This document shows, piece by piece, positions 916 to 57,881 of a stretch of DNA of 64,000 nucleotides; the first letter of the stretch is position 1; the number at the start of each line of letters is the position of its first letter. Origin of the DNA: a virus (Duplodnaviria; Caudoviricetes); the IMG/VR virus record IMGVR_UViG_3300029288_000065, positions 169,960-233,959 of that record. One strand, given 5' to 3'. The notes below the pieces were generated by a model. It was given only the letters and a program-made list of their open reading frames with translations, was not told the DNA's origin and searched no databases. A program made the translations under genes and the position numbers.

Positions 916-1299
916 ATGGAACCCTCTCAAATAGCATCGTTGATCACCGAAGACATCCATGATAATAATGGACTTATACTCGAACATAAATGGAAAGATA
1001 TTAAATATTTGTTGTCAAATTGGAGACAGATACCAGTATTGGCTGATAGATATGGGAGACCATTATATAATCCTGAACTTATAAATGATAATGATTTTAT
1101 GACCAATATTGTAGAAATACTCAACAAAGATGAATATTATCATGGTACATTTGGTCAAGAACAAAATCTACAACTACTTGCTGATCGTTTGGCAGATGCG
1201 AAGAAATATCATAAGCCAGGTCTGATGGGTGCTGGACATTCTCCAGGTCGTTTGGAACGAAGCGGTTATGAGAAACGTCATCCAGTAGAGCGTGTTTGA
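916..1299 (+). CDS. Hypothetical protein with N-terminal IASLITED/LILE, a putative head-targeting or protease-cleaved leader
   Basis: RBS AAGGA before ATG at 916; MEPSQIASLITEDIHDNNGLILEH. Confidence 0.7.
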   Translation: MEPSQIASLITEDIHDNNGLILEHKWKDIKYLLSNWRQIPVLADRYGRPLYNPELINDNDFMTNIVEILNKDEYYHGTFGQEQNLQLLADRLADAKKYHKPGLMGAGHSPGRLERSGYEKRHPVERV

Positions 1300-1502
1300 A
1301 TTTCCAGAACCAATTCTTCTTCAGATTTAAATTCTCTAAGTTCTCCATTGAAGTAGAAGATTATATCTTCGCTTTCTGGATTTCCGTTTTGGTCTATTTT
1401 TATGATTGCTTCTTTACAGACGTTGTACTTTACATCTCTAAAGAGGATATTATATGTTCCACCGAGATCTTTGGCGCAGCATTGTTCCCAGGTGAATGTC
1501 AT
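1278..1502 (-). CDS. Hypothetical protein
   Basis: RBS AAGGAGGA; 74 aa; converges on the plus-strand island. Confidence 0.6.
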   Translation of the reverse strand: MTFTWEQCCAKDLGGTYNILFRDVKYNVCKEAIIKIDQNGNPESEDIIFYFNGELREFKSEEELVLEIQTRSTG

Positions 1503-1523
1503 TTTATCCTCCTTTCAAGACTT

Positions 1524-1865
1524 CTATGATGACACCGTTCTGTATGGATCTTCCATTATCATCTTATCAATTACTTCCGAAATATATCTTGGGTTACAAT
1601 CTGGGTCTGAGAAATCTTTTTCAAAAATAATTTCTCCAGGTTCTAATACTGGTTGGATAGAAAATTTATCCCTCCTAATAGTAATCCCACTATCAGTTAT
1701 ACTAAGGGAACCAAGGACATAATGGTTTTGTCCATCTTTGATAATGAATATATCATGGTTATTGAAATGATTATTCGTATTATGAAACCAGATATATCCT
1801 TCCGTAAGTCTGATATGGTCCATAAAATCTCTAAGGATTACTCTGGACATTTCCATCTTTTTCAC
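1524..1865 (-). CDS. DP-motif family protein
   Basis: C-terminal EKDFSDPDCNPRYISEVI. Confidence 0.7.
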   Translation of the reverse strand: MKKMEMSRVILRDFMDHIRLTEGYIWFHNTNNHFNNHDIFIIKDGQNHYVLGSLSITDSGITIRRDKFSIQPVLEPGEIIFEKDFSDPDCNPRYISEVIDKMIMEDPYRTVSS

Positions 1866-2247
1866 CCTCCGACTTAAATTGCTCTAGAATAATATCGATA
1901 GATTTGGGGTCATTGAGATTGGTTAATGGCAATTCTTTGGACCATCCAGATGGCATTGTGTGACTTTCAATCCATTTTTGGTAAGAAACTTCTCCATTTA
2001 TATGGACGACTACAATTATATCATAATAACAGATATTAAATCCTATTGCTGGCCCAAGAGTTATACCACCTGGTCTTTCATATTCAACGTTTAAGAAGAC
2101 TTCTCGCGTATTAACTTTTTCTATTACTTGTGTTACTAATTTTACTGCTAATGATGCTATTTCTTCTCCAAAAGATTTTCTGATCTCTACGTAACGGAGT
2201 TGGTTTCTTTTAAGCATATTTGGTCTTGCTGGTGATTTGTTCCACAT
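1831..2247 (-). CDS. DP-motif family protein
   Basis: C-terminal LTNLNDPKSIDIILEQF; RBS GGAGG. Confidence 0.7.
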   Translation of the reverse strand: MWNKSPARPNMLKRNQLRYVEIRKSFGEEIASLAVKLVTQVIEKVNTREVFLNVEYERPGGITLGPAIGFNICYYDIIVVVHINGEVSYQKWIESHTMPSGWSKELPLTNLNDPKSIDIILEQFKSEGEKDGNVQSNP

Positions 2248-2276
2248 GATGTATTCCTCCGAAAGCTTTTAGTATA

Positions 2277-2420
2277 ATTTGGGCTGGTGGGTGCCGCTTC
2301 CTTGTCCCGAGATGACTAGTATCGCAGGTCATTCCCGACTCAATGAGTTAGGTAGCCCACGCAATCGCCTTTCGGCTCTCATGGTGCGGGACGAGTTTGA
2401 AGAGGTCCACCAGCCCAAAT
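2277..2420 (-). ncRNA. Candidate structured RNA (~144 nt) closed by a 14-bp stem; 6S-like architecture possible
   Basis: Perfect inverted repeat ATTTGGGCTGGTGG (2277-2290) / CCACCAGCCCAAAT (2407-2420). Further pairings CUUC/GAAG, CUCGUCCCG/CGGGACAAG, AUGAG/CUCAU, a GCC-GAAA-GGC GNRA hairpin and an AUGAC/GUCAU hairpin. GC-rich island in AT-rich context. Confidence 0.5.
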
Positions 2421-2990
2421 GAGTATGTTCTTATCTTTGTGCCCTGTCTTATCAATCGCATAAATCGAAGCCAACTTCCAAAGTGGTTTCCTTTGTTTTA
2501 ATATTCCCTTTATTTCTAGAGCAAACTCTGGATCTTTCATTTTCTCAATATTATTTTCATATCTACCAATATATAATGACTTTAATTCGTCATTTTCATT
2601 ATAAGCCCATGCCTTAACTTTTAAGCCAGAATGACTGATTTCTTCTGATTTTAACGGTACGTATATTGGTGCTGCTTTTCGTTTGTTTAGGTGACGGTCC
2701 AGACAAATCTCAACTGTGACAATCATAGCATTCCAGACAACAAATGTGAATAGTCCCGATCTGAAAAAGATTGTATCATTCCCATATCTTTTTAATCGGA
2801 CTTTGTCTTTCGCAGTTAAATTGATAACTTTGTCAGCTTGATGGAAGCGTTTACAGAATTCTTCAAGCATATTGGTTTTCTTCCCGTTGGGGAATAACCT
2901 TGCCCAACGAGAAGAAAACCGCCACATTGCATGGTCTGTAATTCCAAGTGTAATTATTTTCCCTTTTTTGTTCTTGTAACTCGGAAGCAT
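2379..2990 (-). CDS. Putative RelE/DUF4258-like fold protein with a C-terminal DP-like motif
   Basis: ITDHAMWRF..R and FVV....IVTV motifs typical of T-x-H-A-x-x-R RelE-like proteins; KMKDPEFALEI. Confidence 0.5.
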   Translation of the reverse strand: MLPSYKNKKGKIITLGITDHAMWRFSSRWARLFPNGKKTNMLEEFCKRFHQADKVINLTAKDKVRLKRYGNDTIFFRSGLFTFVVWNAMIVTVEICLDRHLNKRKAAPIYVPLKSEEISHSGLKVKAWAYNENDELKSLYIGRYENNIEKMKDPEFALEIKGILKQRKPLWKLASIYAIDKTGHKDKNILIWAGGPLQTRPAP

Positions 2991-3094
2991 AATTACCTAT
3001 CCAGGAGGTAGCGCTCCACCAACCATCCTTCCTTACCTTTTTGTGGACCGGTTTGGACACGGACGTAGTAATCACGCCACACATCATTACTGTA

Positions 3095-5059
3095 TCAGCA
3101 GCGGATTGCGCGAAGAATCTTCATCTTCGCATTGTGGAGAACCTGCCTAACATGCTTTAGATTAACGTCTCTTGCGGCTGCAACAGTCAAGACCCCAGGA
3201 ATGGTCTTTTCCTTGGTACCGGTATCATCCTTCTCCTTAATAGGAGACTTGAATACCAGAGGATACTGGTGAGCAATTTCCTCTACTTCCTTGATTTTCT
3301 GATGATCAAGGCCATAAGCCTGAGCGAACACCAGATTCTCTTCCAGAGTCAAACCAGCAAACTTCCTGGCCGTCTGGACCAGAGGGTAAAACTTCGGATC
3401 TTCCTCCAACTCCTCGAAAGAGAGATCCTGGAGCTTCTTGTCGCCAGCTTCCTGGAACTGGGCAATCCTCTGACGAGAAACGGTCCTGTTCTTGTTGGTA
3501 TCATTGGTCAACTTGCCGAAGTTATTGGCTATCTCAGAACCAGCCAATTTCTCCTTCCCGTTGATCCCATAGATGTGCTCCAACACCACACGCTGCTTGT
3601 CAGAAAGGACTACTTGGGAAGTAAGCCTGCTTACCAGTTCTACCATCTCATTCTGGCTAGCAATCTCATCCGGCTGAGCGAACGGAATACCAGTCTGGAA
3701 TCCACCATCAGTCCTCTTGGCGAGCAAGTCAGCCTTCTGAGAATAGCTGACCGTACCAGTCAGGACTCCACCCTCTTCAGGATCTTCTGCCCCATCCAGA
3801 CTCACAGGATTCCCATGGAAATCAGGATTAGTGGCGAAAAGCTGAACCAGGTCAGCCACGCATTGGACACGGTCAGAACTACTGGCATTTAGTGATACCT
3901 TCCTGGACCCAGGAGTATTGTTGAACTTCAAGTTTAGATAATCAACCAGGTAATCCAGAACATCGCCATCCAGGTTTCTGAGGTTAAACTTCCCAGAAAC
4001 TACCCAAATGTAGACGTTCTTCTGACCAAGTTTCTGGATCAGTCGGTATTGCCAGTTGGGAGGAGTACCGATTCCCAGACCATCAGTCCCGTTGATAATT
4101 TCATAGGACTTGTCAGACTTTGACAGTTCAAGATATGAATTGAAACCCTGGTCCTTAGCAATTTCGTCCAGTTCTCTGGACCCGATAGGCCCCAGGAAGT
4201 TCTCTTCCCAATAAATTATCTCGTCGAGATATTCATATACTTTGTCCTTTATTTCTTGGATCTTTGTCTCGGATTTTACATCTTCGAAGGATTCATATTT
4301 TAGCGTCTGGGCATGCCTGTCCATTTCATGTTGCTTGACTTTTCCAGTCAGATAGATGGTGATTGCTTGTAGAACTTCGGTCACGGACGGGCGTTTTTCA
4401 GGAGTTTTTACGATTCCTGATTGGGCTGACGGGCGGCGTGTACTGGTTCTGATTCTGCTGTAGCCGTGCTTGGCGAATGGTGCCATTCCTGCATCGGTCT
4501 TGATTGCGAACATCAGGCCTATTGCGCCGTTCTGTTTGCATTCGTCCACGTCGCAGCGCTTGGAGTAGTAGCGTTTGGCGTTTTCTCCAATATAATTGCT
4601 CATTGCCTCTACGAGTTCGTCTTGTGTCCAGTTGTAGAGGAGTGGATGTTTGATCTTGTTGAGGGAGTCGAAGGTCTTGGGGAGCTTGCAGAATTCTTCG
4701 TATTCTTCCTTGGTCGGGAGGCCTTGGTAGCGGGTAATCTCGACTCCGTTCACTTTGACTTTTAGGATTTGTGTAATCTTCTTTAGAGTCTTGACTGAGC
4801 GTTGGACGTTGAAGAAGATTTGGATTTTTTCTTCCGGGACGCCGATGGAGAGCAGGTGGTCGCGGATGACTTTTTCGAGTTCTTGGTTTTTGCTGTTGTC
4901 TTCTTTCTTTTGTTTCTTGATGCTTTTCTTGTCATAGACGATTTCGGCGCGGATGAATTGTTCTGCTTCTTTGTTTCCGATATTAGCCGTCAGGTTCTGA
5001 CGGATTTCCTCTAGCAGAAGGGCATGATCAGAGACGATGAGGGGTGGTTCTTTGGACAT
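3095..5059 (-). CDS. Phage sigma-70-family RNA polymerase sigma factor, large, with two region-4-like HTH domains
   Basis: Region 2-like DVDECKQNGAIGLMFAIK...FAKHGYSRIRTS; region 4 LSDKQRVVLEHIYGI...EIA...VSRQRIAQFQEAGDKKL; second region 4 LTLEENLVFAQAYGL...EEIA...VRQVLHNAKMKI; RBS AAGGAG before ATG 5059. Confidence 0.75.
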   Translation of the reverse strand: MSKEPPLIVSDHALLLEEIRQNLTANIGNKEAEQFIRAEIVYDKKSIKKQKKEDNSKNQELEKVIRDHLLSIGVPEEKIQIFFNVQRSVKTLKKITQILKVKVNGVEITRYQGLPTKEEYEEFCKLPKTFDSLNKIKHPLLYNWTQDELVEAMSNYIGENAKRYYSKRCDVDECKQNGAIGLMFAIKTDAGMAPFAKHGYSRIRTSTRRPSAQSGIVKTPEKRPSVTEVLQAITIYLTGKVKQHEMDRHAQTLKYESFEDVKSETKIQEIKDKVYEYLDEIIYWEENFLGPIGSRELDEIAKDQGFNSYLELSKSDKSYEIINGTDGLGIGTPPNWQYRLIQKLGQKNVYIWVVSGKFNLRNLDGDVLDYLVDYLNLKFNNTPGSRKVSLNASSSDRVQCVADLVQLFATNPDFHGNPVSLDGAEDPEEGGVLTGTVSYSQKADLLAKRTDGGFQTGIPFAQPDEIASQNEMVELVSRLTSQVVLSDKQRVVLEHIYGINGKEKLAGSEIANNFGKLTNDTNKNRTVSRQRIAQFQEAGDKKLQDLSFEELEEDPKFYPLVQTARKFAGLTLEENLVFAQAYGLDHQKIKEVEEIAHQYPLVFKSPIKEKDDTGTKEKTIPGVLTVAAARDVNLKHVRQVLHNAKMKILRAIRC

Positions 5060-5103
5060 GTTCGGCTCCTTTCGTCGCACGAACGGCACGAGATGACACG
5101 AGA

Positions 5104-5132
5104 ATTTTACCACATTTGGTGGTTTTTGTCAA
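5104..5132 (-). promoter_or_regulatory. Consensus host sigma-70 promoter driving the phage sigma gene
   Basis: Minus strand TTGACA-17 nt-TAAAAT with TG extended -10 (TGTGGTAAAAT). Confidence 0.75.
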
Positions 5133-5159
5133 GTATCGAGTTTGTGCGAATACCAAGAG

Positions 5160-5846
5160 TTATTTTTGATTATAACTTACATTTAACTCTGATAACAGTG
5201 TTTCCCAGTTCGAACTGAAATATTTAATCAAAGTCAACAAGTGGTCAAGAGTTTTTCCTTTCGGATCTGCTAAGTCCGTTGGGATTATATGATCTGGATT
5301 ACGGTGATTCTGTAACCTAAAGACGACATTCCCATCAACAATCAGGATGAAGAAAGGCATAATAGTTGGACTTACGATAAGGTAAGGAACTTCTGAGTTA
5401 TTATAATCCCGATAAGTGTATCGAGATACTTTGTAACCTTGTTCTTTCAAGAAGAATTTGATTACATTTAGGGTATCTGGGTTTTCCTTTAGTTGTTTCT
5501 TCTTTAGGATTTGTTTTCGGTCATCTTCGATATGTTCTATAATCTTGTCACATAATCCGATATGTCCGTTGGTGTAGATTCTATCATGCCAGATATCTCT
5601 AAACCGTGCTGTTTGGATAGCCATATATAAGTTTGTTTCCGTTTCCGTAAAGATCACGAAATACTTCTCATTCTTATACTTTATAGTGAAGATATACTTG
5701 GTTTCAGTCCAAGTAGCACCTGGATATTTTGGTTCAGTAATTACTCTAAAATCAGTAGTTTGAAACGATTTGCTGTCGTCCAGCCAAGTTTTAAATTCCT
5801 GCAATTTTCTCAGCTGTTCAGGATCTTCTTTTATGACGCCACCCAT
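5160..5846 (-). CDS. DP-motif family protein
   Basis: PTDLADPKGKTLDHLLTLI near the C-terminus; likely start ATG 5846 with GGAG. Confidence 0.7.
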   Translation of the reverse strand: MGGVIKEDPEQLRKLQEFKTWLDDSKSFQTTDFRVITEPKYPGATWTETKYIFTIKYKNEKYFVIFTETETNLYMAIQTARFRDIWHDRIYTNGHIGLCDKIIEHIEDDRKQILKKKQLKENPDTLNVIKFFLKEQGYKVSRYTYRDYNNSEVPYLIVSPTIMPFFILIVDGNVVFRLQNHRNPDHIIPTDLADPKGKTLDHLLTLIKYFSSNWETLLSELNVSYNQK

Positions 5847-29643: not shown

Positions 29644-30389
29644 TCTTCGTCCTTTTTCTTTTCTCTGAGGCTTAGTTTGTTGTATAGCTCGATAGCCGCT
29701 GTGATAACTACTTTATCATTCGTCGTCAAAGCGCCTTTCACAGTCCGTGTTTGTCGCAATACTTCCTGATCAGTGCCGAAGAATTTGGCATGCACAGGAA
29801 TCCATGTTGTCACTTCTGGATTTACAGCAGCCAAGAAGTGCCCATATCTACCTTCAATATGAACAAGATACCATACATCGGCATTTGCAATTGTAATATA
29901 TTCATGCGAAACTGAAGTCCCCGAGATAGCCACCAACTTCTTAACTTGAGCGTAATTACAGGCATCACTCCAGGACGCGTATCCACTCTTGTTTGTGTAA
30001 ATTGTTGATTTGACAAAACTATATCTGTTGGTAATCTCTCTGATCGTCTCTGGTTTCTTATAATTATCAATGAATTCAAGTTGTTCCTTCCAGGTGGTAT
30101 GCGTACAATTTCCATTTATATATGTCCAACTCTTAATCTTCTTATACCCACCGGTATCATCCATATAGAAGACATCAACACCATCGTTTTCACTGTCTCC
30201 CCTTACCGAAATACCTTCTCTTGTAGCTTTCCAATAAAATCTATAGTCTCTCTCACTAACAATAGTAATTTCAAACCCACGCTTTTCCAAAAGATTTAGA
30301 ATATTAACAATTTTGGTGTGTATAAACCTGTCAGTGCCCAATATTCCTGCTTTCTTGTTTAGTCCAGAGACTTGTTCTCTCCAAGTCAT
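29640..30389 (-). CDS. Hypothetical protein, L[TN]xxD-tail family
   Basis: ANADVWYLV...LTTNDKVVITAAIELY. Confidence 0.7.
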   Translation of the reverse strand: MTWREQVSGLNKKAGILGTDRFIHTKIVNILNLLEKRGFEITIVSERDYRFYWKATREGISVRGDSENDGVDVFYMDDTGGYKKIKSWTYINGNCTHTTWKEQLEFIDNYKKPETIREITNRYSFVKSTIYTNKSGYASWSDACNYAQVKKLVAISGTSVSHEYITIANADVWYLVHIEGRYGHFLAAVNPEVTTWIPVHAKFFGTDQEVLRQTRTVKGALTTNDKVVITAAIELYNKLSLREKKKDEE

Positions 30390-30781
30390 TTCTTTTTCTT
30401 CTCCTCAATATCCTCGTTCATCTTCTCTCTAATTTGAGCCAATACAATCTCAGCATTAGCTATTGGGAATTTCTGATGCAATCTAAAAGTCCCAGTGCTC
30501 ATTTCCGTATAATTGATAAATTCACCTCGCGTAACATCAATCCAAACGTTATTATAATCCTCCGTGTACGGCATCAACCAACCTTTGTCCTTCTTCCCAG
30601 TCATGACTGTTACTGCACAATGGATAGACAGAACACATTCTGGGTCGCTCCATTCCCTGTCAGCGTAGAGCGTGATTTTTCGGACTTCAGTGATATACCA
30701 TTTCCCGATCTTGAATCCTGGTGTGAAGTTATATTTCTTAATATCACCATAATCGATCTTGTCAAACACTTTAGTCTTCAC
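30386..30781 (-). CDS. ELAxP-subfamily protein
   Basis: REWSDPECVLSI...WIDV...FPIANAEIVL. Confidence 0.6.
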   Translation of the reverse strand: MKTKVFDKIDYGDIKKYNFTPGFKIGKWYITEVRKITLYADREWSDPECVLSIHCAVTVMTGKKDKGWLMPYTEDYNNVWIDVTRGEFINYTEMSTGTFRLHQKFPIANAEIVLAQIREKMNEDIEEKKKK

Positions 30782-42523: not shown

Positions 42524-43771
42524 TTACTCGTCCTTGTCCTTACCCCACGCGGTCTTGGACAGGAGATCCTGCAGTTGAGGACGCTCAAGCAGCCGGTCCA
42601 AGAATTTCTTCTTGCCACCGGGGGAGCCGCCAGCCTTACCCAACAGCTTGGCCAACTTCGGATTGGAGATTGCTGCCGCCCGGACGTGATCGTCCACGCC
42701 CGCTCCGCCACCAGACACCAAAGCCTTGCAGAACGCAACCACAAGGTCCTTGTCCGGATTCTGCTTGCACATCCATTCCGCAAAATCCAGAGCGACTTCG
42801 CCAGGCTTGTCCTCTTCGATCTTGGGCTTGATGAAGCCCACGAGGCCCCACATCAGACCTGTCATCTGATTTCGGTTCAGCTTGCCAAGCTGGCCTTCCT
42901 TGGCCTTGACACCGGTCTGAACCAGCTCGCGAGGCTTGACAGGGCAGGAATACCGGCTATACGACATCGCCAGTTCTCGACCGATCAGACCAGCGATGAC
43001 TTCGATTCGGGCTTCCTCGCTATAGCTTCCTTCCTTGCAGGCTTCCTCCACCCTTACGATTGCTTCCCACGACCGCCTTGACGGCTGGATACCGAAGCCA
43101 AGTTCGCCGTCCACGTCACCATCAAGGTGCTTGACGTTCTGCGTGGCGAACTCGATTACCTGGGATGCCCGACCTTCGTGCTTCATACCCATGTAATCGA
43201 CCCATTCATCCAGGGTCGTCTCACCGTCACTCAGAGTGACGTGACAGAATCGATTCAGGAAGGCCGGATCGGTGAATCCGTTCACCATGTAGCCTTCCAT
43301 GAAATTTCCCGCGCAGACCACGGACCAGCCAGGCGGGAGGGTATACTGACCGACCTTGCGGTCCAGGATCAGCTGGAAGATTGCCTGTAGCACGTCGTCC
43401 TGGGCTCGATTGACTTCGTCCAGGAAGAGGATTCCCTGCTTGAGGCGGGGTTGCATTTGGTTCCAATATGCTTCCTTCTTTTCGTCGCCAAGTTCGTTAT
43501 ACTTGGTGATGAATTCCTTGAATTCGATATCGGCGATGGGCATGTCTGCCGGTGGGAGGTAGATGGTTCGTCCGTTTTGTCGGTCAGGGAGGCCACGGAT
43601 GTCGCTGGCTTCAAGCTGCGAGCATCGCATGTCGATCATTCCCATTTCGTCTTCCATTGAGGTCTGTTGGACCACGCTGGATTTTCCGATGCCTCGGTGT
43701 CCCCAGATGAACAGCGTCACATTGGACTTTTTGCAAATCCTGATAGTTTCCTTCAAAGTCTTGATCTTCAT
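42524..43771 (-). CDS. MoxR-family (AAA_5) AAA+ ATPase
   Basis: IWGHRGIGKS, DIRGLP, LFLDEVNRA, LILDRKVG.Y.LP, AGN, DPAFLNRF, PSRRSW. Confidence 0.9.
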   Translation of the reverse strand: MKIKTLKETIRICKKSNVTLFIWGHRGIGKSSVVQQTSMEDEMGMIDMRCSQLEASDIRGLPDRQNGRTIYLPPADMPIADIEFKEFITKYNELGDEKKEAYWNQMQPRLKQGILFLDEVNRAQDDVLQAIFQLILDRKVGQYTLPPGWSVVCAGNFMEGYMVNGFTDPAFLNRFCHVTLSDGETTLDEWVDYMGMKHEGRASQVIEFATQNVKHLDGDVDGELGFGIQPSRRSWEAIVRVEEACKEGSYSEEARIEVIAGLIGRELAMSYSRYSCPVKPRELVQTGVKAKEGQLGKLNRNQMTGLMWGLVGFIKPKIEEDKPGEVALDFAEWMCKQNPDKDLVVAFCKALVSGGGAGVDDHVRAAAISNPKLAKLLGKAGGSPGGKKKFLDRLLERPQLQDLLSKTAWGKDKDE

Positions 43772-49718: not shown

Positions 49719-50010
49719 CCAGGTTCTTGGCTGAATTTATTCGTTTTACTATCTTAATTTCCTGTGTATCTCTTTCCAGGATGAATTTCTTGTTTTTTAT
49801 GTCTACTGTTAAGCTTGGTACGAAATCCCTATTGATGACCATATCAGCACATGCTGTGACAAACCAGATATCAGCCGTTATCTTGACGGATGTGTTTGGG
49901 TTTGATAATTCTTTCCCTCGTGGTGTACTTATATAGAGTATGAAGTTGGATATCGATCCTTTCAACCATGAAAGGTCGAACATGTTTGTTATTCCAAGAT
50001 CAACTCTCAT
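49672..50010 (-). CDS. ELAxP-subfamily protein
   Basis: KELSNPNTSVKITADIW...VDIKNKKF...NLDEVF. Confidence 0.68.
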   Translation of the reverse strand: MRVDLGITNMFDLSWLKGSISNFILYISTPRGKELSNPNTSVKITADIWFVTACADMVINRDFVPSLTVDIKNKKFILERDTQEIKIVKRINSAKNLDEVFQAIERKLHDQA

Positions 50011-50553: not shown

Positions 50554-50934
50554 TTACAAGTAAACATGTTTTTTATCGCGGAGAGCGTTCTGGTCTATTC
50601 TCCGTGGTTCTACTAATATCTTGAGTTTATAAATCTTACTACCATGCCAAATTTTTCTTAGAAAACCATATTTTATCCAGAGGTGAACAAAAGGAACGAG
50701 AATATTTTCTTTTACTTCCATCATCTTTACCGCCCAATAACCAGCATTGAACTCCTGTTTTTCACTCAATATTGACGGATCATTCAACAAATAAAATTTC
50801 AGCATCCAATCCAATAAAGAAATCTGATCAATAATTTCATTCTTCTTATTCCCAATAAAGATTAGGTGATATAGGAATTCAGGATCACATTTGGGGTCTG
50901 CTAGTTCCCATGAGATTCCAAGTCCATTTTTCAT
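50554..50934 (-). CDS. N-terminal DP-motif winged-helix-like protein
   Basis: WELADPKCDPEFLY...LWIKYGFL. Confidence 0.68.
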   Translation of the reverse strand: MKNGLGISWELADPKCDPEFLYHLIFIGNKKNEIIDQISLLDWMLKFYLLNDPSILSEKQEFNAGYWAVKMMEVKENILVPFVHLWIKYGFLRKIWHGSKIYKLKILVEPRRIDQNALRDKKHVYL

Positions 50935-51329: not shown

Positions 51330-51857
51330 CTAGGATTTATTTGACCAAGACGCCAAAATAATAATACAACCTAAGAATCCGACAATAAGGCCAGACCAAA
51401 GAAGAATATGCATCAGAAGAACATGAGGATAAAATGAAATAGCTGCTGGAAGCGTAACCTCCTTACCATCAAGGAGAGTCTCACGCACCCGGATCAAGAC
51501 GTTACTCCGTTCCAGGGCCGTAGTCTTCGACTCGGTTCCAGTATTCTCAACCTCCTTCAAAGCTTCACGGGCCTTGACCAGGTTTTCATACCAGAACGAA
51601 ATATCATTTGACGGGGTACTAAAGATAATACCAGTATTTCCAGTTGTCAGCCCGTTATCCTTGGCATACTTTAATGCCAAATCTAACTGTTCACCACACT
51701 TCTCAGGTGAAGCTGAATCTGCCGCTCGTTTAAGATACTCCTCACAGTTCCATGAGAATCCAAAACTCTTAATAACCGGTGCCATCAGCAAAATAATACC
51801 AAGTAATGCACCGGTTAGCCCTACGAAAAAGATACCACCGTTACTTGGTTTCCCCAC
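51330..51857 (-). CDS. Two-TM phage membrane protein
   Basis: N- and C-terminal hydrophobic helices; YLKRAAD...GLT.G.T....TP.ND..FWY.NL; GTG start with GGAGG. Confidence 0.7.
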   Translation of the reverse strand: MGKPSNGGIFFVGLTGALLGIILLMAPVIKSFGFSWNCEEYLKRAADSASPEKCGEQLDLALKYAKDNGLTTGNTGIIFSTPSNDISFWYENLVKAREALKEVENTGTESKTTALERSNVLIRVRETLLDGKEVTLPAAISFYPHVLLMHILLWSGLIVGFLGCIIILASWSNKS

Positions 51858-57285: not shown

Positions 57286-57400
57286 GGCAACCTCGGAATA
57301 GGAACATGAACGCGATTACTATAATGATGCTGATTACTATAAACATGATTATACTTTTTACTGGATTACTCTTCTCTTCCTCTACCGACAGTGTTACCAT
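57218..57400 (-). CDS. Small membrane protein
   Basis: RBS AAGGAG; single TM. Confidence 0.55.
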   Translation of the reverse strand: MVTLSVEEEKSNPVKSIIMFIVISIIIVIAFMFLFRGCREMGHHRHAEGGTHVPVQNIRA

Positions 57401-57436
57401 TTTGGCTCCTTTTCTATCTTTTCCATGGTATCATGA

Positions 57437-57465
57437 CCACCCCCTCCAACAACGGGAGGGGGTGG
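57437..57465 (-). terminator. Intrinsic terminator hairpin
   Basis: CCACCCCCTCC / GGAGGGGGTGG 11-bp stem. Confidence 0.65.
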
Positions 57466-57482
57466 ATTGACCCACGGAGAAG

Positions 57483-57881
57483 TTACCCGATGGAGATCCC
57501 CAGGGACTTCCCGTCCAGAGCGGCCTTGGAAGCCTCTTCGACTTCCACGGTCACCGGAACTTCGACGCCAAGAGGATCAACAACCTTCCCCTCGACCGTC
57601 TGAGGTTCGGACAATCGTTTATAGAGCTTGTCAAAGACAGCGACACCAGCAGTGTCCTGGTGTTCACGCCGGATTGACGAGCTGGAACCGACTACCAGGA
57701 TCGCGGTCACCGTCTCATCCCCGTTCTTTACGGGGAATTTGATGGTGTCCACGACTCCCTTGGAGAAGGACAAGGGCTTCTTGTCTTCTCGCTGAGGCAA
57801 ACCGAGCAGGGTGATCTGCTGGATGCCTCCTTCCTTGATCTTCCGACTAACCTTGAGTTTGACTTCGACCGACTTGGACAT
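57483..57881 (-). CDS. Hypothetical protein, GC-rich, probably highly expressed
   Basis: RBS AAGGA; followed by a terminator. Confidence 0.78.
   Translation of the reverse strand: MSKSVEVKLKVSRKIKEGGIQQITLLGLPQREDKKPLSFSKGVVDTIKFPVKNGDETVTAILVVGSSSSIRREHQDTAGVAVFDKLYKRLSEPQTVEGKVVDPLGVEVPVTVEVEEASKAALDGKSLGISIG

Follow-up and report, generated by a model that had tools for sequence, protein, structure and literature searches.

What is the strongly folding element at positions 2277 to 2420 on the minus strand of this phage DNA, and what might it do at the end of an early gene for a sigma-like protein? The window (the whole 64,000-nucleotide stretch that we analyzed) is the final 64 kb of a 234-kb IMG/VR virus record, hereafter the genome, which is 89% complete according to CheckV and has 39.6% G+C; a longer assembly of 252,755 bp has the same proteins. 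A sequence-only reading of the window had proposed that the element, which lies close to the sigma-like gene, is a structured RNA and possibly a phage version of 6S RNA. We find that the element, which we call the rod, is a previously uncatalogued phage RNA family that falls within the known phage intercistronic and 3' untranslated region (3'-UTR) structured RNAs, and that it is not 6S RNA. As for its role, we tentatively favor a hairpin that would stabilize and process the 3' end of an early message, an explanation that we hold to be possible, though short of probable.

Jumbo phages that redirect the host RNA polymerase with sigma-like factors of their own are almost unstudied at the RNA level. 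What is new here is an uncatalogued RNA with a predicted strand-specific fold, conserved G-U pairs, compensatory changes, and a conserved apex, together with its conserved address directly behind the early sigma-like gene.

Predicted fold, relatives, and strand of the rod

The copy of the rod in the window (copy B; Table 1) forms a G+C-rich island (0.54, versus about 0.33 in its surroundings). Its minus strand has a minimum free energy of -63.9 kcal/mol, compared with -42.6 +/- 3.6 kcal/mol for dinucleotide shuffles (n = 200; z = -5.9), and none of the 200 shuffles folds as well, so that the stable fold expected from the letters is borne out. The plus strand reaches -65.0 kcal/mol, and both strands lie 5 to 6 standard deviations under dinucleotide shuffles. 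In addition, when the 234-kb genome was scanned for inverted repeats (stretches of 70 to 190 nt with a closing stem of at least 9 bp), copy B ranked lowest in energy per base among the 145 closed stretches. A sliding fold scan (150-nt windows, step 40) missed both copy B and its paralog, copy A, because the windows cut both elements.

The family has four detectable members in three uncultivated phage lineages, and its known distribution is narrow. Copy A is a diverged paralog on the minus strand at genome positions 167737-167884, which is 2.1 kb before the window and 4.3 kb upstream of copy B. The two copies are 71% alike in a forced alignment. The 14-bp closing stem is retained in copy A, where one position is mismatched and another is a G-U pair, and the two copies have in common a 1x3 A/CAC internal loop, the flanking GUGGAC...GGCACCCA, and the apical region. 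A single-sequence covariance model of copy B (R1) recovers copy A at an expectation value (E) of 5e-4 or better. Model R2 finds only copies A and B in the genome (53.5 and 50.7 bits), and neither the covariance models nor BLAST, which returns one exact copy, find a third copy in the 234 kb.

Orthologs were found by fetching, from a large protein collection, the contigs (designated here by L numbers) of homologs of the sigma-like protein. On L010/L011, where the sigma-like protein is 60% identical, a 132-nt rod begins 9 nt past its stop codon (R1 score of 55 bits, E = 4e-10). On L017, where the identity is about 40%, a shorter rod of 96 nt begins 12 nt past the stop codon; it has a weak R1 score (14.8 bits), yet its apex aligns clearly with the other members. 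The tie to a phage sigma-like gene, which had been proposed from the window, thus extends to these relatives, and copy A likewise begins within 9-12 nt of the stop codon upstream of it.

Searches of L012-L016, L023-L027, and L024 with R1 and R2 gave no further members. Among GenBank phages, blastn returned only chance matches of 25 nt and tblastn with the sigma-like protein returned none, and IMG/VR searches with ORF138 (the open reading frame, or ORF, downstream of the rod), ORF203 (the one that overlaps it), the sigma-like protein, and the alignment of the latter found no relatives. Pattern searches returned several stretches that we set aside. Five stretches in IMG/VR have the same 10-bp termini as the closing stem, with interiors that are unrelated, GC-rich, and mostly weakly folding, and we regard them as chance or unrelated; two IMG/VR matches to the loop motif, both in coding sequence, and four matches to the apical core in JGI metagenomes are attributed to chance.

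The four members have a common predicted plan, which consists of a basal rod (P1-P3) with small asymmetric internal loops, a helix P4, an optional side hairpin P5, and an apical P6-loop-P7 hairpin. They are 96-148 nt long, with 38-55 pairs per copy in an imperfect rod. The basal stem has 11-16 bp in copies B and A, L010, and L017, is perfect but for one mismatch in copy A, and is nearly unshared in sequence among the four. P4 (4-5 bp) comes in three complementary versions, namely AUGA/UCAU (copy B and L010), GAUU/AAUC (L017), and AUAGC/GCUAU (copy A). Its pair probability is 0.64-0.99 in copy A, L010, and L017 versus 0.01 in copy B, where the ensemble prefers another junction and the comparative structure lies 1.3 kcal/mol above the minimum free energy.

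Much of what the sequence-only reading had described is recovered in this plan. The closing inverted repeat is indeed a perfect 14-bp stem, the minus-strand helices CUUC/GAAG and CUCGUCCCG/CGGGACAAG are present (the latter with one C-A mismatch), the GAAA-tetraloop hairpin occurs as GCC-GAAA-GGC, and the 5' end overlaps ORF203, so that the element takes in the final 14 codons of this ORF together with its UGA stop. Two further helices that it had placed in the inner junction, AUGAG/CUCAU and AUGAC/GUCAU, are not kept in the homologs, which have P4, P5, and P6-P7 instead. A kink-turn reading of the GCUA/AAUGAC loop was also dropped, since by eye the loop is not conserved in copy A or L017.

Across the four members, the apical 50 nt or so are conserved in sequence, with a mean column identity of 72%. 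In this apical core, 89% of cells are paired in the given structure, versus 28-48% when the partners are slid by one to three columns. Furthermore, four pairs are changed on both sides (0-2 in the slid controls), and the covariation score is 0.49 (at most 0.20 in the slid controls). In the MAFFT alignment, each of the fixed U-G and G-U pairs of P6, like the U-G pair of P7, is retained by three of the four sequences; once a one-base shift of copy A is corrected by eye, the P7 pair is found in all four. With four sequences, we regard this predicted comparative structure as supportive rather than conclusive.

The same comparison bears on which strand is under constraint. The gene-sense strand (minus in the window) folds 5-17 kcal/mol better than the antisense strand in L010 (-64.2 kcal/mol, z = -7.1, versus -47.5), L017 (-58.4 kcal/mol, z = -7.3, versus -44.7), and copy A (-68.0 versus -63.0 kcal/mol), with copy B alone being strand-neutral. 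Each sense structure has 3-9 G-U pairs, which become A-C mismatches when read on the other strand; neither a cruciform nor any other reading at the DNA level accounts for this asymmetry. Non-standard pairs are absent from the minimum-energy folds of copy A, L010, and L017, and there are two in the comparative structure of copy B. The conserved G-U pairs and the compensatory changes point to a constraint on RNA rather than on DNA. Altogether, we conclude that the element is, as predicted from these sequences, an RNA-level structure on the gene-sense strand, which agrees with the earlier proposal of a structured minus-strand RNA on the strength of the z score of copy B, the homologs, and the folding advantage of the sense strand.

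Comparison with known families and mobile elements

We searched Rfam 15 at the gathering score and then at permissive E (up to 10 in 2150-2550 and up to 5 in the homolog loci). No match in the window reached the gathering score, and nothing relevant was found for the element or the homolog loci at the permissive thresholds; weak matches to CRISPR-DR, Ms_AS-8, and SNORA71 (E of 2-7) are attributed to chance. Specifically, the models of 6S RNA (RF00013) and 6S-Flavo (RF01685) have no match in the whole phage record or in the homolog loci, and they detected the positive controls, including those of E. coli and B. subtilis. A Y RNA or YrlA assignment was also rejected, as no TROVE domain is found in the phage record (controls detected) and Rfam gives no match. 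The rod does not have the makings of an intrinsic (Rho-independent) terminator either: no T-run (U-tract) follows copy B, copy A, L010, or L017, and a terminator scan finds none on its strand.

The outline of the rod nevertheless invites comparison with 6S RNAs, which are about 160-200 nt long, have an enlarged central loop or bulge between two long helical arms, and are defined by shape more than by sequence (PMC8414754). As a phage 6S-like RNA, the rod would be an open-promoter mimic that sequesters the host sigma-70 holoenzyme during takeover by the phage sigma-like factor. Its closing stem, looser and loop-rich middle, and apical stem fit this proposal, as does the thematic link to sigma factors through a conserved neighboring gene. 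However, besides the lack of a model match, the members are shorter than typical 6S RNA, as had been noted from the window; their middle is closed by the covarying P4, unpaired runs in the centroid structures reach only 4-7 nt, so that there is no large central bulge, the apical arm has only 13-18 bp, and L017 has what is almost an uninterrupted hairpin of 96 nt. The side hairpin, which 6S RNA has on its 3' side, lies on the 5' side here, and the rod would be made as a 3'-UTR or intercistronic segment. The motif GCGGCAC, which the sequence-only reading had taken as a 6S feature, is found only in copy B, where it sits in the 3' arm, and is not conserved (copy A has GAGGCAC and L010 has neither). 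A 6S-like RNA is therefore highly improbable in our judgement. Equally hard to credit is a DNA-level element with no RNA function, either a miniature inverted-repeat transposable element (MITE), which had been named as an alternative, or a gene-cassette recombination junction. For the latter, ORF203 is bracketed by direct repeats of the 5' arm, the upstream one being unique in the genome and identical to the L010 arm, which suggests that recombination has used the arm as a junction on one occasion or more. Against both, there are only two diverged copies with no flanking or target-site duplications, the relatives carry the rod at the orthologous position, and folding is strongly strand-asymmetric, with conserved G-U pairs that turn into A-C mismatches on the opposite strand. 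Finally, an RNA antitoxin for ORF203, likewise suggested earlier on account of a RelE-like look, is barely conceivable. The two do overlap physically at the 3' end of ORF203, and the N-terminal domain of ORF203 has a small toxin-like look, which is a reader's impression with no family match behind it. However, the RNA occurs without an ORF203 homolog in L010, L011, and L017, copy A lies beside other genes, and the element contains no tandem repeats of the kind seen in type III systems.

A possible role in cis and its alternatives

The neighbor genes of copy B are all on the minus strand, so that the rod is flanked on both sides by same-strand genes, and consensus scans place a strong promoter upstream, ahead of the sigma-like gene; the L010 ortholog of that gene is preceded by the same promoter. 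In the window as in L010, the same scans find neither a promoter-like site adjoining the rod nor a terminator-like one on the strand that carries it. The explanation that we tentatively favor is a hairpin, located in a 3'-UTR or between cistrons, that would serve stability and processing, either through RNase III or as a barrier to exonucleases. The rod would be made as part of an early polycistronic jumbo-phage transcript, starting at the near-consensus sigma-70-type promoter and with no promoter or U-tract terminator belonging to the rod itself, as far as in-silico scans can indicate, and would work in cis on the stability and processing of the 3' end. The basal helix is long, its basal pairs being followed by small asymmetric loops and more helix, and it would be cut by the double-strand-specific RNase III of the host, would hold back 3' exonucleases, or would do both. 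Consequently, a protective hairpin would close the upstream early message and uncouple it from the downstream genes, as at the early RNase III signals of T7. The G-U-rich conserved apical hairpin would probably be a specific protein contact that tunes processing, and copy A would play this part for a second early gene block, at the end of which it lies.

The placement of the rod fits this explanation. In copy A, L010, and L017, the rod begins 9-12 nt from the upstream stop codon, and between 18 and about 55 nt, depending on the copy, separate it from the next ribosome-binding site, as would be expected if the element belongs to the upstream message. In addition, two more distant sigma-like genes are followed by long hairpins at the same address: on L024, a 114-nt hairpin begins 1 nt after the stop codon (z = -8.3; sense -56.9 versus antisense -44.9), and on L012/L013, a 65-nt hairpin begins 10 nt after it (z = -6.4). 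Both are unrelated in sequence to the rod family and, since R1 and R2 do not recognize them, we count them only as positional analogs. Their presence suggests that the site needs a stable hairpin as such. That unrelated stable structures stand in for each other at one address speaks for a generic function in cis, fulfilled by a stable, processable structure where the early message ends.

The structure is likewise consistent with processing. RNase III needs about two helical turns of double-stranded RNA, its single-strand cleavage at internal loops leaves 3' hairpins that stabilize RNA, and the early precursor of T7 has five RNase III signals (PMC3867540). A helix of about 22 bp, with internal loops allowed, is available in the rod from the 11-16 basal pairs together with the further helices. 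Like the T7 early signals (R0.3-R1.3 class; PMC3867540), the copies of the rod are paralogous hairpins between early phage genes, presumably transcribed by the host polymerase from a strong early promoter, with at least two turns of double-stranded RNA, small asymmetric internal loops, and a protective 3' hairpin expected on the upstream side. Unlike them, the rod is two to three times longer, has a side hairpin in some copies, occurs as two copies per genome, and is conserved at its apex rather than at a loop where cleavage is known to occur, its own cleavage being predicted; we claim no sequence relation. Another comparison is with repetitive extragenic palindromic (REP) elements, the extragenic 3' stabilizer hairpins of bacterial operons. 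The rod resembles these in being a stable hairpin just past a stop codon, with no U-tract, that could block 3' exonucleases, and differs from them in that it is much longer, has a conserved apical sequence, and is not a dispersed multi-copy repeat.

A number of observations weigh against the stability and processing hairpin. The apical 50 nt or so are conserved, unpaired bases included, across sigma-like proteins that are only 40-60% identical, and a plain stabilizer hairpin would not need a conserved apex. RNase III sites are numerous in T7, but the rod occurs only twice in 234 kb. The phage was found to encode neither an RNase III nor a double-stranded RNA-binding domain, so that the processing enzyme would have to be the host's. 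A hairpin after the sigma-like gene is not present in the relatives L023, L025, L027, and L031, and in the window, ORF203 is translated into the 5' arm of the rod.

Since the conservation of the apex includes loop bases and is common to both paralogs, it points to a specific ligand and keeps a trans-acting RNA in play. The rod might be excised as a stable non-coding RNA, the apex of which binds, sequesters, or guides a phage or host protein while the basal stem acts as a stalk for excision or protection; we consider this rather unlikely, albeit deserving of serious attention. It would account for conservation being concentrated in the apex, with its fixed U-G/G-U pairs, for both paralogs keeping the apical core while the remainder has diverged, and for the linkage to the sigma-like gene being kept in three phage lineages. 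T4 offers a precedent with RNAC and RNAD, two small RNAs that are stable and have yet to be given a role (PMC3014915). Like the rod, these are phage RNAs of more than 100 nt with no known function, and they are processed from longer transcripts, as is proposed here for the rod; however, they lie in a tRNA cluster, and the likeness is one of description only. The apparent lack of a promoter and terminator of its own, together with the unrelated hairpins at the same place in L024 and L012, counts against a trans-acting rod. A related proposal, which we regard as distinctly unlikely, is that of a new sigma-linked regulatory RNA class: once cut out of the early sigma-like message at its 3' end, the rod would use its conserved, G-U-rich apex to bind either RNA polymerase, the phage sigma-like protein, or a factor of the host, and would take part in the switch from host to phage transcription, which would amount to a 6S-like function with a different architecture.

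Alternatively, the rod could act on the transcribing RNA polymerase, either as a factor-dependent or unusual termination or pause signal, or as an antitermination RNA like HK022 put or lambda nut, although we find this very unlikely. The two copies share a strand, and each lies at the end of an early-looking gene block, with a promoter-like site 2.1-2.7 kb upstream; a TGATAC promoter-like motif follows copy A, with a TTATAC variant after copy B. As with put and nut, there are two per genome, one per early operon, that would act as nascent RNA. However, put and nut sites are close to their promoters and much smaller than the rod. In addition, no U-tract follows any copy, no same-strand terminator-like site that would have to be overridden was found in 1200-5400, and Rfam offers no family match.

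If the stability and processing module is true, the T7 paradigm of RNase III-shaped early messages would reach a very different phage group. If, on the other hand, the apex binds a protein, it would point to an unknown regulator of the early-to-middle switch.

Neighboring genes, the ORF203 cassette, and other features

The features of the rod and its surroundings are collected in Table 1.

Table 1. Coordinates of the rod, its parts, and neighboring features (window positions unless a contig is named)
Feature	Position	Strand	Remarks
Rod RNA, copy B	2277..2420	minus	144 nt; basal rod P1-P3, P4, side hairpin P5, apical P6-P7 hairpin (predicted)
Closing stem P1, 5' arm	2407..2420	minus	includes octamer GCTGGTGG; perfect 14-bp complement of 2277-2290
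Closing stem P1, 3' arm	2277..2290	minus	pairs with 2407-2420
CAC of 1x3 internal loop	2291..2293	minus	opposite A2406; same loop in copy A; A-U pair instead in L010
Apical core	2318..2366	minus	conserved in sequence; P6 (tandem U-G/G-U), internal loop, P7 (conserved U-G)
Side hairpin P5, GCC-GAAA-GGC	2367..2376	minus	in copy B, L010, and copy A; not in L017
Helix P4, 5' strand (AUGA)	2379..2382	minus	pairs with UCAU 2312-2315; includes UGA stop of ORF203
ORF203	2379..2990	minus	between sigma-like gene and rod, in this phage only
Putative relic of rod 5' arm, TGGTTGGTGGA	3015..3025	minus	11-mer in the 104-nt spacer upstream of ORF203
Early sigma-like gene	3095..5059	minus	654 aa from ATG at 5059; upstream neighbor, linkage to rod conserved
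Near-consensus sigma-70-type promoter, TTGACA-17-TAAAAT with TG	5104..5132	minus	before sigma-like gene; consensus scan
Downstream ORF138	1831..2247	minus	GGAGG ribosome-binding site 18 nt past rod, unpaired with rod
TTGACR-N13-TGATAC motif	202-226	minus	also L010 3749-3773 and L025 4987-5011
Positional-analog hairpins	L024 4386-4494; L012 10417-10475 (= L013 5847-5905)		after more distant sigma-like genes

The sigma-like protein has homologs P0002-P0005 and 123 representatives in a large protein library. The profile of the family has a weak match to region 2 of RpoD/SigA only (E of about 1e-3), and one homolog carries a faint precomputed match to Sigma70_r2. An 8-mer, GAGCCGAA, that is common to the side hairpin and the ribosome-binding region of the sigma-like gene was dropped (chance expectation of about 0.1). 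On another contig, L033, a tRNA-like gene (2797-2869) lies 8 nt past the sigma-like stop codon; ARAGORN reports it as 'tRNA-???', with no anticodon assigned.

ORF203 is not at this place in L010, L017, or L024. Its N-terminal 105 aa or so form a small conserved domain with no family assigned, and two homologs of 117 aa and 145 aa, which are 50% and 37% identical, cover residues 4-122. No relatives were found for the C-terminal half, and ORF203 as a whole has no Pfam, PHROG, or PDB match. The 11-mer TGGTTGGTGGA upstream of ORF203 occurs once in the 234-kb genome and is the same as the P1 5' arm of the L010 rod, so that ORF203 is bracketed by direct repeats, formed by this 11-mer and the present 5' arm, TGGGCTGGTGGA (2407-2417). 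As a rough estimate, the chance of such an 11-mer match in the 104-nt spacer is about 0.003. We conclude from these repeats that the ORF203 cassette appears to have entered at the rod arm and duplicated it, which would be why ORF203 now reads into the RNA. A gene cassette that has inserted into the arm of a structured RNA is of interest for the way in which elements of this kind give rise to mosaic genomes.

The TGATAC motif is found 27 nt ahead of the radical-SAM gene that follows copy A (genome 166820-167647; L007 6819-7688, minus). The closest phage matches of the radical-SAM protein are unannotated gut phage contigs and archaeal Bicaudaviruses, at 25-36% identity. In its longer form, TTGACR-N13-TGATAC, the promoter-like motif is conserved upstream of homologs of a 229-aa gene in three phages. 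Its spacing of 13 nt is too short for a standard sigma-70 promoter, and it may therefore represent a phage-specific promoter class.

On L017, the rod is followed 200 nt downstream by a second hairpin of about 70 nt (3518-3590), with CCCUGGCUCG/CGAGCCAGGG as its closing stem. The octamer in the closing stem of copy B, GCTGGTGG, is the Chi octamer of E. coli, and the stem has it on both strands, at 2283-2290 (plus) and 2407-2414 (minus). It occurs 23 times in the genome versus about 2.6 expected from base composition and is the commonest among the 168 permutations of its own letters. The strand on which it occurs roughly tracks genome position, which we read as gene orientation, so that a codon effect (Ala-Gly-Gly) is likely. 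Inverted Chi sites as the function of the stem were rejected: although the octamer is over-represented genome-wide, it is treated as a by-product, given that its strand tracks gene orientation and that it is not conserved in copy A or L017.

Finally, the genome-wide scan identified other stretches that fold far better than their G+C content would predict, at genome positions 51601-51830, 49721-49950, 50582-50758, and 30363-30508, and at window positions 57400-57830 and 43442-43630 (plus); in part of these, the strong fold is confined to one strand.

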